Positions 49,700 to 57,544 of a stretch of DNA of 64,000 nucleotides are shown here, one piece after another (the stretch's first letter is position 1; the number at the start of each line of letters is the position of its first letter). The DNA comes from Okamejei kenojei. Its lineage: Eukaryota. The stretch lies in assembly GCA_035221665.1 (NCBI GenBank), contig CM069154.1, positions 6,076,001 through 6,140,000 of the forward strand, in the 5' to 3' direction. The notes under the pieces were generated by a model. The model was given only the letters and a program-made list of their open reading frames with translations, searched no databases and had not been told where the DNA came from. The translations under genes were made by a program, and so were the position numbers.

Positions 49700-50434
49700 T
49701 CAACTACAGAAGGAAACGATTCCACAGGTGTGTCCAGAGTTGTCACAATTCCTTCTGTGCCATTGCACCTTCTGCACCATCAGAGCTTTACGGCGTGCAA
49801 AGGAGCAAGCTCACAGGCTATTCCCAGCTGGCAAAGTCACCATTGTGGACAAAAAGTATTCGGCATTGCCCCACTAATCTTCATCAATACTCGTCAGTTA
49901 ATTACTAACTGATGCTATGTTAAAGATGGATTATTACTATATACCATCTTTAGTTACGGAGGCGGATGGGGTTTGCATGAGTTACCTATTCACATTAGGT
50001 GCATTCTGTGGATAAAGGTTGTGCGAATATGCATATCTGCATGCTCAAGTCTAACTTGATACACTCTGGTGCTATTATATGTAAATCACATGGGTGCAAT
50101 CTAGTAAAAGTATCCGGTAATAGTTTACCTAACTTCATTGGCATTGGCATATCAGCAGGAAAATGAGAATGGATGTGGAATCGCCAGGATTTAAGGTACG
50201 TGGCGATGGATGCATTTCTCGCTACACTGAGGGGTAATGTTCATTGTGTCCATCCATTTACCTTACCAGACGGTCTTGCTAATTCAACTTCCCGCTTCAG
50301 ACATTTTGGAGTGCCTGACTGGCCAATACAGCCATGATCCCGCTGATGTTGGGTATTATGATAGAACCTTATATGGATTGCAGGCACAAAATGGCTGGTT
50401 AGCCGTGACCAGGGAACCATCCCCTGCATACTTT
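49700..50434 (+). mobile_element. Old degraded DIRS1 element, left part (RNase H/MT remnants); left boundary uncertain
   Basis: Frameshifted remnants of YxNHMG, DAFSLH and VPDWPIQP on the + strand. Confidence 0.65.
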
Positions 50435-50938
50435 AATAGTAAGATTAAATGAGAACTTACCAGTTCGAAGTTTGATCTGTATTTTATGAGGAGTTACGAT
50501 GAGGGATTACGTGAAGATCCCGTCCAGCACGCATGCGCGACATTTCTTCAAAGCAGCGGTGTGGATTCACAGAAAACACAACAATTGAAATAAATATAGT
50601 AAAGAAAAAAATAAGAACTTAATTACCAGTTGATCTGTATAATAGAGGGTGGGAGCGGAGGGCACGTAATCCCTCATCGTAACTCCTCATAAAATACAGA
50701 TCAAACTTCGAACTGGTAAGTTCTCATTTAATCTTACTATTTTACTTCGGAGTCACGTGAGTGACTACGTGAAGACTTCAAAGCTCTGTGAATCCGAACC
50801 GTGTACCAGCTCATGCTTCACTCACTGCCTGAAGACCTTAGAGGGAGGAAGCATGTTATACAATCAACAATAACCTGTTTGTGAACAAAAAAGGTTTATT
50901 AATAACAACAAAAAACAGAGAGCTCCCCCGGGCTTAAA

Positions 50939-51868
50939 TTAAATATTATCTGCAGACTCTAAAATTCTGTCTGCAAATGTAGCAGGCTCCGCCAGCGGCT
51001 TATTATAAAACCTTTGGAAAGTTCTTTCCGAGGACCATCCTGCTCTGGCCAGAATATGGTCCATAGGCACATCCATTTGCCTAGCCGCCGACGTAGATGC
51101 AGCCCTGGTGGAATGAGATTTGTACACATTAGTATCGATTCCCGCGGACTTAAGCACCTGCTTGAGCCACCTTGAAATGGTTTGGCTCGTCACCTGACCA
51201 TGAGGCTTCTTGTGGCTTATCCATAAGGCTTTTTCTCTCCCTCTTAAGTTATATGTTGTGTCTATGTAGTTGGCGAGATGGGTCTTGGCACACAACCGTG
51301 GGTCAGGTAAATATGCCCGGAACTCCATAACTGGAGGCGTGGTACCTGGTCTAGATTGTTTGACCAGCCCCTGAATGTGAAATGTGATACAGTCCAATGA
51401 CTCTGTCATGCTGTCCAGCCTCAGAAGGTGGAGGGACTGTACCCTTTGAGCTGACACTAGAGCCATGAGCATGACTGATTTCAGTGTAAGTTGTTCCAGA
51501 GTAAGTGACCTGGGTGGTGGCCATCCCCTAAGGTACGTCAGTACTATGCTGACATCCCAGATCTGAGTGTACCTAGGCCTAGGGGGATTGGTGTTAAAAA
51601 TGCCCCTCATGATTTTGGCCACTAGTGGATGGGACCCCAAAGTCAGTTGTCCTGCTGCTGGAACCAAATAAGCTGACAACGCACTCCTGGCTGTATTAAT
51701 GGCGCTGTAGCTGAGTCCTTCCCGATGTAATCCAAGCAGAAACTCCACAACACTGGTGGCTGTAGCTGTGGTGTAGGTAGTTCCTGTTTTGGAGCAATAC
51801 CGTTCCCATTTTCTTATATTGGTCAGGTATTGTCTCCTGGTGGACTCCCGGTGAGATGCGGTCATCAT
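50939..51868 (-). CDS. DIRS ORF3, tyrosine recombinase
   Basis: Catalytic pattern SAQR, HSTR, GW, FQRFY. The frame opens at ~51940 and the first ATG is at 51868. Confidence 0.95.
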   Translation of the reverse strand: MMTASHRESTRRQYLTNIRKWERYCSKTGTTYTTATATSVVEFLLGLHREGLSYSAINTARSALSAYLVPAAGQLTLGSHPLVAKIMRGIFNTNPPRPRYTQIWDVSIVLTYLRGWPPPRSLTLEQLTLKSVMLMALVSAQRVQSLHLLRLDSMTESLDCITFHIQGLVKQSRPGTTPPVMEFRAYLPDPRLCAKTHLANYIDTTYNLRGREKALWISHKKPHGQVTSQTISRWLKQVLKSAGIDTNVYKSHSTRAASTSAARQMDVPMDHILARAGWSSERTFQRFYNKPLAEPATFADRILESADNI

Positions 51869-51912
51869 GTTGATGGCGTCCTCAGACAGTCCCAGGCCCA
51901 GTAGAGGTCTTT

Positions 51913-53955
51913 TTAGAATCTGCAAGCCAGGAGATTGACTCTGTCATGGCACGGGTGACTAATGCCTGACACTGGGTGGATTAATAACTGTCGACTGCTG
52001 GGGAATTCCAACGGTGTTTCAACAGCCATGTCGAAAGCCACTGGGAACCATGGCTGTGTAGGCCAGTCAGGTATTATCAAGATTCCTGAAGCGGAATCCA
52101 ATTGAATCTTGCGTAATACCCGACTGATGAGGCAGAAGGGAGGAAAAGCATAAAAGAACATTTTCCCCCAATGCAGCGAGAATGCATCAACTGCTGCTGC
52201 CTCAGGGTCTGGTTCCCAAGCGACATACGTTGGTACCTGGTGATTCAGCCTGGATGCAAATAGATCGATATCTGGTGTGCCATATTGCTTTGTAATTTCA
52301 GCAAACACTTTGGGATTTAACATCCATTCGATGTTATCATTAAATCTACGTGACCTGGTGTCTGCCACTGTATTTTGCTTACCTGGAAGGTAAGTTGCTG
52401 ATAACCAAATATGCCTTTCAACACACCATTGCCAGATTAGGTTGGCCAAATTGTCACACGATATCGACTTTACACCACCCATGTGATTGATATAAGCCAC
52501 CACCGTGGTATTATCTAGTTGCAACCGGACATGTGCATGATGCGTATTACATGAATATGCTTTTAACCCATAAAACGCACCCAACATTTCTAAATAGTTG
52601 ATGCCCCGTGTCTGTAGGCAAGATGATTCAAATTTACTCCATCTGCCCCCTGTGCTGGATTGCATGTTAGTTGCTCCGCAGCCCAAAGCACTGGCATCCG
52701 TTTGAATGGTTAATACTGGGTTGGTGATCATTATGGGACTGGAGCTGAGTCTTACATTCCTCGCCCACCATTGTAACTCTGGAATGGATTCAGCAGTTAA
52801 ACTCATAGCTCGGTCAAAGTGACCTGAGTTTTGCTTTAGTGCATGCACTTTAGCTCTTTGCAAATTTTGATAGTGCAAAGGCCCAAATTGTACAGCTGGG
52901 AAAGCTGCTACCATTTTGCCAATAACTCTAGCTACTTCCCGTATGGTTGGCTGATGTTTATTCATGAGTTTGTTGCATGATAGCGCCAATTCTGATGCTT
53001 TCCCCTTCGGCAGAGTTACAATCATGCGAACAGTATCTATCGTAAATCCAAGATAGTCCATGGCAGTGGACGGTGTAAGATTGGATTTTTCTGGATGTAT
53101 GACAAACCCCAAAGTTTCAAACAAACGTTTGGTGGCTGCTGCGACTGCTAAAATAGCTGTCTCCAAGGTTTTCCCTATTATTAAAATATCGTCTAAATAC
53201 GCCATGACTATATGCTTTTGTTTCCTCAATAATGCCAAGGCAGGTTTTAAGATTTTAGTGAACAACCTTGGAGCAGAGGTTAGCCCATTTGGTAAGGCTT
53301 TATATTGCCATAGCTGTTTCATCCAGATAAATTTTAAATATTTTCGATTGTCCTTGTGTATGGGTACTGAGTAGTAGGCATCTTTTAAATCAATGCTTGC
53401 TAGAAAGTACCCCCTAGAAACCAATAGTCTGGCTGTTTCAAAAGTATCCATCTTGAAATGTATATACCTGACAGACTTGTTCAAAGTAGTTAAGTCAATG
53501 ATGATGCGTCGTCCACCATCTTTTTTGATTTTAGTGAAAATATTAGACACAAATTCCAAAGGTTCATGTTTTGTTCTTTCAATGACACCTTTAGCTTGTA
53601 ACCTCATCAGTTCAGCTTGACCCTCTTGTTTTTCCTTGACTGAGAGGGTGAATACCCTTTTGGGTATATGCTGAACTGGTGGAAAATCTTTATGGACAAA
53701 GTCAATTTTGTAGCCATGAACGCTGCTGAGTATATACTTGTCATTAGTGATGGATTCCCATGCATCCAAAAACAAGTGCAATCTCCCCCCTGTTAGCACA
53801 GAGCCCCTACTGCACATATGCTGAGAGGAACCAGACCCACCTACCTCCATGGTTATTGGTGCTTCTTCTGCCTCTTCGCTGGGTGATGAGGCGTCTGCTG
53901 GGCTGTAGAGGGTTGATGTTGATCTCGATGTTGTTGGGGGTGGCGCATTTTCCAT
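51913..53955 (-). CDS. DIRS ORF2, reverse transcriptase-RNase H-methyltransferase-like
   Basis: IDLKDAY, LPNGLTSAPRLFTK, YLDD; RNase H TDAS, INYLE, DNTTVVAYINHMGG, ADTRSR; MT-like DIDLFAS...YAFPPF...PDWPTQPW. Confidence 0.95.
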   Translation of the reverse strand: MENAPPPTTSRSTSTLYSPADASSPSEEAEEAPITMEVGGSGSSQHMCSRGSVLTGGRLHLFLDAWESITNDKYILSSVHGYKIDFVHKDFPPVQHIPKRVFTLSVKEKQEGQAELMRLQAKGVIERTKHEPLEFVSNIFTKIKKDGGRRIIIDLTTLNKSVRYIHFKMDTFETARLLVSRGYFLASIDLKDAYYSVPIHKDNRKYLKFIWMKQLWQYKALPNGLTSAPRLFTKILKPALALLRKQKHIVMAYLDDILIIGKTLETAILAVAAATKRLFETLGFVIHPEKSNLTPSTAMDYLGFTIDTVRMIVTLPKGKASELALSCNKLMNKHQPTIREVARVIGKMVAAFPAVQFGPLHYQNLQRAKVHALKQNSGHFDRAMSLTAESIPELQWWARNVRLSSSPIMITNPVLTIQTDASALGCGATNMQSSTGGRWSKFESSCLQTRGINYLEMLGAFYGLKAYSCNTHHAHVRLQLDNTTVVAYINHMGGVKSISCDNLANLIWQWCVERHIWLSATYLPGKQNTVADTRSRRFNDNIEWMLNPKVFAEITKQYGTPDIDLFASRLNHQVPTYVAWEPDPEAAAVDAFSLHWGKMFFYAFPPFCLISRVLRKIQLDSASGILIIPDWPTQPWFPVAFDMAVETPLEFPSSRQLLIHPVSGISHPCHDRVNLLACRF

Positions 53956-55088
53956 GGGGTCCGCTCTGGGCCCTGGCCTAAAAAAGGCTTACGGGGAATG
54001 GTTGCGGACCCCGAGCTTTCACCAGTCCCATAGTGTGGTCGACGACTGGTGGACGCCATGGGGTACTGCCGCCTGGGTTTGTTGGGTCTGCTCGGTCCCA
54101 AACCTGCCCTCACGAGACCAAAGGTCTTGGATTCTTCTTCCAGGTCTTTCACCTTTTTTGGAAGGTCTTTCCCAAAGAGCAGAATAGGAGGTTCTGACCC
54201 CGGTGTTTTGCAGAGTCCCGCAAATTTAGGGTTGAGGGCAGGCTTGATAATCTCCTTTCGCAAATTATTTATCTCATATTGAGTTGTGCACAGCAGAGCT
54301 AATGTGTCTTGCTGATTTGTGGAGATGTCCGCACCATCAATGGACCGAGCATAAGATGTTATTCCTGCAGTCAGGAATTTAAGGATCTTCTGGAGCTTCA
54401 ACTCCAGGTTTCTGATGTTCTGCCCCAAATGTCCCCAAATTTGGCTATTGACAGCAGGTACATTCAAAGATGTACAATTTCCTGGGGCTGTATATAGTTG
54501 AAGAGCCTCATTGACCACTTGTTCTTGTAGGGGTTTAGAGGACAGGTGGTTAATGCTGGCTGCAAGTTTCGGCTCTAATGGCCGACCCGCTTGTGGAATG
54601 GCCACGTAGCGGTTGACCACACCCAGCAGTTCTTCCTGTTCCTGTACACCCTGCGTACTCCCGAAATCTTCAGCCAGTGACCCCTCTTCTTGACCAGCCC
54701 AGACCTGGTCGCCAATGCTGCCTTCAAAAGAAGGTGAAGCAATGGCCAGTGCCGTAAAAGGCACTGCGGGAGTGCCTGAGCTCCCTTGGCGAGGCTGCTG
54801 CTGCTCTCTCAGCAGATCTCGCTGGAGCAATTGCTCCATAAGCCGTTCCATGCGGCTTAGGCGGCTGCCTGTGCTCTCGAGCGGTAAGGCATCTTCATCC
54901 GAAACGTCGGACACTACCGCCCGGTTCTGGCTGCAGGTACCTCCAGCCCGCTGCTCAGGCAGCACTAGCGGTGCTGGGCTCGGCTCGGTAGTTATAACCG
55001 CCGCCTCTTGCCCCCCCTCCAAAGAGCATTCCTCAACGAAGGACGAACGGGGGCGAGCTGCAGACTTCTTTCCTCGGGCCTTGCTCAT
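53853..55088 (-). CDS. DIRS ORF1, Gag-like
   Basis: Long open frame with first ATG at 55088. Position and motifs (LNVPAVN, LLFGKDL) are typical of DIRS ORF1. Confidence 0.85.
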   Translation of the reverse strand: MSKARGKKSAARPRSSFVEECSLEGGQEAAVITTEPSPAPLVLPEQRAGGTCSQNRAVVSDVSDEDALPLESTGSRLSRMERLMEQLLQRDLLREQQQPRQGSSGTPAVPFTALAIASPSFEGSIGDQVWAGQEEGSLAEDFGSTQGVQEQEELLGVVNRYVAIPQAGRPLEPKLAASINHLSSKPLQEQVVNEALQLYTAPGNCTSLNVPAVNSQIWGHLGQNIRNLELKLQKILKFLTAGITSYARSIDGADISTNQQDTLALLCTTQYEINNLRKEIIKPALNPKFAGLCKTPGSEPPILLFGKDLPKKVKDLEEESKTFGLVRAGLGPSRPNKPRRQYPMASTSRRPHYGTGESSGSATIPRKPFLGQGPERTPWKMRHPQQHRDQHQPSTAQQTPHHPAKRQKKHQ

Positions 55089-55282
55089 TCTTCCTGGAAC
55101 ACAAGACCACAGAGAGAAAGGCACACGGCCACGGTAAACTTACCTGTCGGCCCGACTTTTCAATTTGTAGCGGGAGTGCCTTGAACTCCCGTTCGTCGCG
55201 GTGCACTGCATGAACGCTAATGTCGCGCATGCGTGCTGGACGGGATCTTCACGTAGTCACTCACGTGACTCCGAAGTAAAAT

Positions 55283-56571
55283 CTAGTCATTGACTTGCAG
55301 ACTGGAAAGACCGCTCCTGCGGCTTACTATTGTCAAACCAAACTAAGTTGACACGGATGACTGACGTCTTAAGTTCAGTTCCATATGGGGTTGACAATCA
55401 TACTAGTGTGCTATTACTGTGCCGCACGTGCCTTCTCAGCATTTTGGCTGCGAGGAGCAGAATCCATTTATCGGGTCACCTTCTGTTCGAGATAGGGTCT
55501 TAAACTCAACACCCCCCAGGGAGGTACGCAGAGATCTGGGATGTTAACATTGGAACATCCCTGCCCTGGGCTCACTATACCAAGGGTTATGCTCATGACA
55601 CTAAGGCAGCACTATGGGTCCAGTTGCTTAGCTGTGACTGGACAAGATGATTATTCTGCATGGAATTACATTTATGTTATCACTAATCAGCAGATATCGC
55701 CAGCGACATTAGGTCTCAAACTAGTATTGCTGGCATATCCCATGGACCTTCGGTTGCATGTGGCACACATCTACACCAGTATGCTAAGGTCTCTAGAGCC
55801 TTAGGGACTGAACTATCAATGATTGATAGTCACATGGAGCCTCACTAGAGAATCACTACAGACCATCGGCTGGTGGTTTATATGGGTTCTGGGGGCAGGA
55901 GTGAACACTGACATACAAGTCTCACTCCACCCAGGCTGCAACTATATCAGCAGCAGGGGGTGGACGTTCATGGGACCACATCCTAGCAGGTGCAGGATGG
56001 TCCACGAACGATTCCAAACATGTAGAAATACCCTTGCCAGACCAGGGGTATTTGCCGACTTTTTAAGTCTGTGTTTAGTTCCACCCGGGTGCAGGAGGTA
56101 CTATTATCACTAAGTGTACATTATAGCATCAACATGTCTATTCCTATGTCATGTCTGAATGCATTATTAAAATTAGTTCTTCACTGTTGCAGTGTGTGAT
56201 GCATGGACTCGTCCATGGCATGAAATCACAGCGCTTTGAAATCTTCACGTAGTCACGTGACTCCGAAGTAAAATAGTAAGATTAAATGAGAACTACCAGT
56301 TTGAAATTAGAGCTTTATTTTATGAGGAGTTACGATGAGGGATTACATGCCCTCCGCTCCCAAACCCTCTATTATAAAGGTCAACTGGTATCTATAAGTT
56401 CTCTCTTATCTTACTATGTTAGTCAATTCTGGTATCTGTGATTTCACACCGCTGCTTTGAAGAATGTCGCGCATGCGTGCTGGCGAGGTCTTCACGTAAT
56501 CCCTCATCGTAACTCCTCATAAAATAAAGATCAAATTTCAAACTGGTAATCTCATTTAATCTTAGTATTTT
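55283..56571 (+). mobile_element. Old degraded DIRS1 element, right part (YR remnant, ICR, right ITR)
   Basis: Remnants of RY.EIWDV and HST. 56241-56571 is a diverged mirror image of the 50435-50775 ICR/ITR block. Confidence 0.85.
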
Positions 56572-57544
56572 ATGAATGTTCATCTAAGTAATATAATCAA
56601 AGTGTAGTGGCACCCACTCCATTTGAAAACACTGTAACAGTTCCCTCGTTCTAATTTAAAGCAGTAGTGAAATAACATTGCCTCCAAATAGCTTATCTTC
56701 AAATTATACTACACCGATTGTTCAATGTAAAATGTATGAAAAATGAAATGGCTCCGGAACATGGTTGAAGAAATAAAATGAGGTGCTTGACTGCGTTGAC
56801 GGAATTCTCAACATTAGTAATATTTTTTTAATTTTAGCCTATTCCTGTTGTAGTCCACAATAACCCTTCTGCTCCCTTTGTCAAATGGAACCTGCCAATG
56901 CACTGATTGCCAAAGCCGTTGTTTATGGTAATGAACTCAATATATTTCTGGGCCATTACAGGCAGACAATTAGTGGTCACATATATTGGTGGGTTTGGAA
57001 GGCGTATTAAGAGGAGAGAGGGGAGGGAGGGTTGAAACAGGGTCAGGTAGGTGGCAGGTGCACCTAGAGAAGGTGAGGGATGATGGGAGGAAGATGAGGA
57101 GGGGGCGGGGAAAATTTGAGACAATGCCAGTGTGCGGTATGGGAAAAAGACAAGGGGATAAACGAGGTTCAAGTGAATTAGATGGAGATATCTGGTGGTG
57201 AGTAGAATATCGGGCAACAGTACCTCCGACATTGCCGCACTCCTTCTGGCGCAGGTGTAGAGTTGCGGCTCACAGCACTAGAGACCTGGGTTCGATCCGC
57301 ATGACGGGTGCTGTCTGTGCAGCGTTTGTCCGTTCTCCCTGTGACTGTGTGGGCTTTCTCCCGGTGCTCCGGTATCCTCCCACACCCACAAAACGTGCAG
57401 GTTTGTGTAAAAATGAATATTGTCACCCGTGTGTGTAAGATAGTGCTCGTGTATGGGGATCGCTAGTTGGCGTGGAGTAGGTGGGCCGGAGGGCCTGTTT
57501 CCACGCTGTATCTCTAAAGTGGCATATAAAGAGGAGAGAGGGGA

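Follow-up and report, generated by a model that had tools for sequence, protein, structure and literature searches.

The window analysed here, a stretch of 64,000 nucleotides of Okamejei kenojei DNA (GenBank assembly GCA_035221665.1, contig CM069154.1, positions 6,076,001 to 6,140,000 of the forward strand), carries on its minus strand a young, intact DIRS1-like retrotransposon of the order DIRS. The element occupies positions 55282–50435, has a full length of 4848 nt, and begins and ends with ATT. A genome search recovered 29 full-length copies with 98.5–100% identity and differing flanks, most of which have ATT at both termini (NTT-type ends with no longer target duplication), and exact element motifs gave about 928–1,310 matches in the genome. 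Inverted terminal repeats (ITRs) of 45 nt with 96% complementarity were present (55219–55263 versus 50500–50544). The left terminus with the left ITR spans 55219–55282, where 55246–55282 also pairs with 50739–50775. Complementarity searches placed the right ITR and right extension at 50435–50544 and the internal complementary region (ICR) at 50663–50775; the latter is complementary to both element ends, with matches of 79 nt and 37 nt, each at 100%. The same ITRs, ICR, ATT termini, order of gag, reverse transcriptase (RT) and tyrosine recombinase (YR) genes, and short overlaps are described for DIRS1-like elements in passages of PMC3266345, PMC9210276 and PMC7192593. We describe here how this element may produce its RT and YR by means of an optional intron and a −1 ribosome slip.

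The element has three open reading frames (ORFs) on the minus strand. ORF1 (53853–55088) encodes a gag-like protein of 411 aa with 1,493 relatives and no Pfam match. The ORF2 frame (51913–53988), −1 to gag, covers the RT/RNase H/methyltransferase region; it matched RVT_1 (PF00078, E 1.3e-20), while the RNase H and methyltransferase parts gave no Pfam match at E 0.01, and residues 74–691 aligned with P0124, a carrier of PF05869. ORF3 (50939–51919, 326 codons when counted from the splice acceptor A3 described below) encodes the YR, with matches to Phage_int_SAM_1 (PF02899, E 1.5e-8) and Phage_integrase (PF00589, E 4.3e-6, 27.0 bits against a cut-off of 27.1); its translation contains an HSTR motif. 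Among named YRs, a skate protein (72%) is the closest. The YR frame is offset by −1 from that of RT, which it overlaps over a short stretch.

An earlier note on this DNA had proposed that a single 5′ splice donor serves an acceptor ahead of each ORF, with two leader ATGs starting RT and YR on subgenomic spliced RNAs. Splice sites were scored with an approximate matrix and ranked among the 239 GT and 339 AG sites of the element. All of the motifs named in that proposal exist in the present copy, at the coordinates given for them. The donor CAG/GTAAGT (D1, 55138–55146, cut 55144/55143) ranked 1/239, and AG ends lie at 55094, 53978 and 51920. The acceptor-like site ahead of gag (A1, 55093–55107) ranked 1/339 and would leave a 50-nt intron after D1, the ORF3 acceptor (A3, 51919–51933, cut 51920/51919) ranked 8/339, and the presumed ORF2 acceptor ranked 28/339. 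Leader ATG 55230 (55228–55230) lies 87 nt from the donor in phase 0, leader ATG 55211 (55209–55211) 68 nt in phase 2, and the first ATG of the YR frame is at 51868. A further donor that the earlier note overlooked, D2 (53839–53847, cut 53845/53844), ranked 4/239; it lies 8 nt past the gag stop and cuts the RT frame between two codons.

The conservation of these sites was investigated in related elements. Sixty stretches were taken: of 121 matches to a diverged YR, 50 were used, and of 41 to a neighbouring older family, 10. A usable YR was present in 53 of the stretches, which, together with the present element, formed 13 clusters whose YR identity to the element was 52–61%. A column scan over 25 better-preserved copies from nine families (median identity 62%; 3,235 aligned columns, 54169 to 50935) gave D2 as the best-conserved donor, with a mean score of 8.2 against 4.7 for the next, and A3 as the best-conserved acceptor (7.0 against 5.8). 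D2 scored above 5 in seven of the nine families. In the neighbourhood of D2, the 33 of 45 copies used were those whose best local donor fell at the D2 place, the 12 excluded being decayed or ambiguous; AG/GT stays at D2 though the neighbouring residues vary between families. YAG was found at A3 in 50 of 54 copies. Both D2 and A3 lie at codon boundaries, A3 in the YR frame, and therefore a D2>A3 join would be in frame and replace RT with YR. A conserved GT donor and a conserved YAG acceptor in matching phases, as looked for in an optional intron, were found. The predicted intron (51920–53844, 1925 nt) would take out RT. Another donor-like site, at 52382, scored 11.1 in the present copy and was rejected as a candidate, exceeding 5 in only five of the nine families.

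The start of the YR frame was examined in the same relatives. The 20 YR-frame codons ahead of A3 contained no ATG in 10 of 11 family representatives and usually contained a stop (none in L129); the frame is usually shut by a stop 5–8 codons before A3, with no ATG between. Past A3, the first ATG is codon 18 in the present element; one family has it at codon 88 or 105 (10/10 copies), and another at codon 40 (5/6 copies). The N-terminal 40 codons of YR are conserved from the D2>A3 junction onward. Because these codons are conserved in families without an early ATG, such families need a start outside the YR frame.

The third site lies at the end of gag, where the earlier note placed its ORF2 acceptor. 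Positions 53985–53979 hold a T_TTT_TTA heptamer in register with gag. The RT frame (−1 to gag) is open from two codons ahead of the heptamer and continues through a transframe segment of 47 codons (53845–53985) that overlaps the gag tail. An X_XXY_YYZ heptamer in the register of the upstream ORF, with the downstream ORF at −1, was the pattern sought for a frameshift site, and it is the pattern found. The heptamer was present in 13 of 20 copies of the frame-shifted families, in register in eight, the others being decayed between heptamer and D2. It was absent in 13/13 copies of two families in which one reading frame spans gag and RT; there, gag–RT is open for 274–414 codons before D2 in 10 of the 13 copies, and D2 stands at the gag end. 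At loci of the L104 and L129 families, the single gag–RT frame is open for about 410 codons ahead of D2. A length filter kept 100 of 149 gag relatives; in 93 of these 100, FL falls 20–70 residues before the end, in a tail that cannot be aligned, against 57 occurrences of FL in 29,533 other residues. The FL of the gag tail is encoded TTT TTA in most copies displayed; elsewhere, invariant Phe uses a single codon in 1 of 14 columns and invariant Leu in 0 of 25. We therefore consider 53985–53979 more likely to be a −1 frameshift site than an ORF2 acceptor. One close gag relative (P0234, 72%) goes over into the transframe reading at the T run itself, suggesting an indel there in that copy.

Outside gene models were also inspected. 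A search for longer YR proteins found 25, and most other long matches were RT–YR models. Two RefSeq models from Diadema antillarum (XP_071483612.1 and XP_071502116.1) join gag, a 55-residue transframe segment starting with AFFR, and the YR N-terminus, without RT; the Montipora model P0170 has a similar layout. AFFR is also the start of the transframe segment in the present element, and the same heptamer letters can be deduced for the sea-urchin and coral models from their −1 reading AFFR. The Diadema segment has no Met, and it therefore requires an upstream start.

The 5′ leader was compared among the near-identical copies, among 44 older copies chosen for an altered donor, and among 40 related copies with their own 5′ end (three others, nested or deleted, were excluded). 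The 87/68-nt leader spacing was kept, by alignment, in 17 of the 29 near-identical copies. Counted per locus, ATG 55230 was open in phase 0 in 13/29 near copies and 5/44 older copies, and ATG 55211 was open in phase 2 in 15/29 and 14/44, respectively; all three phases occur among the older copies. Amplified sublineages also differ in leader phase, nine copies having a common 1-base deletion at 55160 and five a 1-base insertion at 55202. Among the 40 relatives, whose leaders are otherwise diverged, a donor scoring above 7 was found at +124 to +190 in 38, an acceptor scoring at least 5 within 40–60 nt after that donor in only 15 of the 38, and, in seven of the 40 (in one family, 0/7), an open leader ATG that D1 would bring into the YR frame. 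From the donor count of 38/40 and the in-frame ATG count of 7/40, we conclude that D1 is a conserved signal but that the leader-ATG scheme is not. Conservation thus upheld the 5′ donor and the ORF3 acceptor as real signals, and with them splicing as a route to YR; the ORF1 acceptor proved patchy, the leader-ATG frames matched in the present copy but were unstable among near copies, older copies and relatives, and production of RT from a subgenomic spliced RNA gained no support.

Further features of the leader were noted. A second donor lies 17–26 nt upstream of D1 in 27 of the 38 relatives that keep it; such tandem donors occur in most diverged families (L095–L154, the upstream one at +108 to +119), and the present family has lost the upstream one. 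An intron from the upstream tandem donor to A1 would be about 65–80 nt. The nine-copy sublineage (L005, L010, L015–L019, L021, L023) carries three common indels, at 55160, 55092 and 50577, and in it a D1>A1 splice would put ATG 55230 in the gag frame, probably by chance. The HIV-1 major donor provides protection from early polyadenylation, and this offers a parallel for D1 as an anchor for U1. The role of D1, as judged from sequence, is probably either that of such an anchor or that of a donor for a short 5′UTR intron, the two standing about level. For the LAP2alpha exons of TMPO and ZNF451, which derive from DIRS1 gag, Abascal et al. infer, in a passage of PMC4495291, that the colonising sequence brought a splice acceptor; an acceptor ahead of gag, as at A1, fits that inference, and splicing of the element itself is not treated in that passage.

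In the expression scheme that we favour, full-length unspliced RNA would yield Gag, and a −1 ribosome slip at heptamer 53985–53979 on the same RNA would yield a Gag–RT fusion. RNA spliced from the donor at 53844 to the acceptor at 51920, with RT removed, would again yield Gag and, with the slip, a Gag–recombinase (Gag–YR) fusion. Families with fused gag–pol would obtain Gag–YR from the splice alone. D1 would bind U1, either for a short 5′UTR intron or against early polyadenylation. What is observed is where the sites lie, in which reading-frame register they stand and how well they are conserved; from this we infer the splice, the slip and the fusions. On this footing the D2>A3 splice is very likely and the −1 slip at the heptamer likely, and we regard the operation of both together as somewhat better than an even proposition. 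Whether animal DIRS1 elements as far apart as those of corals, sea urchins and cartilaginous fish follow one switch, with an HIV-like slip at the gag end followed by an optional intron as wide as pol, so that a single slip gives Gag–RT or Gag–YR, and with the gag–pol-fused lineages having lost the slip and kept the splice, we would put at even chances.

Several observations weigh against this scheme. One family has a weak D2 (3.2), and A3 is ahead of the next acceptor by only 1.2 bits. The codons at A3 are by themselves unexceptional, since invariant Arg is AGR-only in 3 of 7 columns and invariant Cys uses a single codon in 2 of 4. In many invertebrates the YR frame contains an upstream Met of its own, and the Diadema and Montipora models are predictions. 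On the tree, single-frame gag–RT needs two changes, though one origin is possible. No stimulatory RNA structure was found after the heptamer in 19 copies (z −1.6 to +1.2 versus shuffles, with folding that covered structures other than pseudoknots), and the codon after FL starts with G in 87 of 93 gag relatives, with P or S before FL in 85, a pattern that also fits a pyrimidine-rich acceptor. The predicted splice joints were absent among the joints listed for 8 of 13 runs, all of them contigs and none shown to be RNA; unspliced contigs in run X6 span D1 and A3. Runs X1–X4 cover the element evenly, two of them marked as probably DNA, and X5–X8 have no listed joint at the predicted sites, so that these runs are not evidence on expression. 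Copies with altered bases at the sites included no spliced retrocopy: 0/44 with an altered base after D1 (1,310 unaltered), 0/5 after D2 (928 unaltered) and 0/6 before A3. Those variant copies were searched for by exact patterns, which older copies escape.

Other routes to RT and YR can be set against these data. The D2>A3 splice could be real and translation of RT and YR begin without a slip, either by reinitiation at ATG 53850 or after a prior splice from 55144 to 53977. ATG 53850 stands two bases past the gag stop in a strong context, two codons before D2, and recurs in several families, but RT-frame ATGs between heptamer and D2 are missing in L096, L101, L102, L109 and L125 and in the Diadema segment. 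The prior splice would draw on YCT TTT TTA G, which fits an acceptor, and on a leader ATG in phase for 53977 through either 5′ donor in 10 of 21 copies of frame-shifted families (5/7 in one family). Against it, site 53978 ranks 28/339 and falls outside the ten best-conserved acceptors, F and L do not vary at a place where other pyrimidine codons would suit an acceptor, and 6 of 93 gag tails do not have the G. We judge this route unlikely. The scheme of the earlier note, in which D1 feeds three acceptors and the leader ATGs start RT and YR, can point to the strongest donor of the element, kept in nearly all of the relatives, and to frames that match in the present copy. Its difficulties are that leader phase varies between the amplified sublineages described above, that few relatives have an in-frame ATG to YR, that A1 is patchy, that D2 after gag is the better-placed donor, and that the ORF2 site has the character of a −1 frameshift heptamer; as a whole the scheme appears improbable.

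It could also be that no functional splicing takes place; a −1 slip in the RT/YR overlap, of the kind suggested for Ngaro, or a non-AUG start would then give YR, and the splice-like motifs would reflect protein constraint. The short −1 overlap between RT and YR, the Ngaro proposal (quoted in part of PMC13003380), the residues CR at the RT end, which dictate part of A3, and the lack of a junction among the joints listed in the runs all fit that view. By eye, however, no slippery heptamer is common to the RT/YR overlaps, and the codon before CAG is TTG, CTG or TCA rather than a single start codon; the occurrence of D2 in a stretch of varying residues and the gag–transframe–YR models are left unaccounted for. 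We hold the absence of splicing to be very doubtful, and return to the scheme of an optional intron combined with a slip at the gag end.

That scheme has partial counterparts in known retroelements. In HIV-1, gag–pol is expressed by a −1 frameshift at a U_UUU_UUA heptamer; the present element has the same type of heptamer in the gag register, with pol at −1, gag reading FLG and the transframe reading FFR. It differs from HIV-1 in that no stable stem-loop was found after the heptamer, there is no protease, and a YR read in a third frame serves as the integrase-type enzyme. Subgenomic splicing is known from retroviral env RNA, foamy-virus pol RNA and Ty1/copia gag RNA. In those cases, as proposed here, an optional intron in one primary transcript alters the protein made; in contrast to them, the intron here would be pol itself, with gag kept, and the predicted join would swap enzymes behind the same slip. 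In Ngaro, where a frameshift for YR was proposed by Poulter and Butler 2015 (as quoted in a passage of PMC13003380), YR likewise overlaps the RT end in −1; the present element has a conserved acceptor there instead of a common slippery site. Neither splicing nor a frameshift is given as a route to RT or YR in the passages of PMC3266345, PMC9210276 and PMC7192593 on DIRS1-like elements, the splicing in PMC7192593 being that of a reporter intron. No account of pol splicing or of a gag-end slip in DIRS1 was found in the portions seen of PMC7192593, PMC4495291, PMC5633606, PMC8547959, PMC3783388, PMC9341512, PMC9210276, PMC3266345, PMC13003380, PMC6681497 and PMC4157794; the main DIRS reviews lay outside this search, and a prior description is possible. 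Against that literature, this is a known element family with a probable expression design not found in print.

The surroundings of the element and some further observations are as follows. The young element is nested in an older, gene-decayed DIRS element of opposite (+) orientation (about 50300–50434 and 55283–56572), which has 40 other matches at 90–97%; tblastn on both halves of this host gave no protein match. The insertion point is an ATT/AAT about 18 nt ahead of the YR acceptor of the older element itself. At locus L067 (about 1280–1500), the right end abuts a left end without its first 37 nt (50435 to 55245), a tandem or circle-like junction, and in run X1 one contig links both element ends (joint 50434/55280), a link that an empty site, the ICR or a circle junction would each show. 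A strong donor-like GTAAGT at 50460 on the minus strand (score 10.8, rank 3/239) falls within the right terminus; it stands 60-odd nt short of the end, on the downstream side of the AATAAA at 50900. ORF3 was intact in 29/29 near copies while ORF1 and ORF2 were often broken; we rejected this as a real signal, probably an effect of candidate scoring, because all of the indels stop near a 3-nt insertion at 53142 that is private to the present copy. A metagenome scan gave one 1.2-kb contig, which was not used.

The genomes of fish, amphibians and invertebrates are rich in DIRS elements, which, with Ngaro, make up 2.1% of the zebrafish genome according to a passage of PMC9341512. For their expression of RT and YR, the model points to three exact sites. 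If it is true, RT and YR would both be carried as Gag fusions, and the PFLG motif of DIRS Gag would mark an RNA signal rather than a protein motif. It would also mean that the real N-terminus of YR is mis-annotated in databases, and it would account for the production of a YR whose gene often has no start codon of its own.

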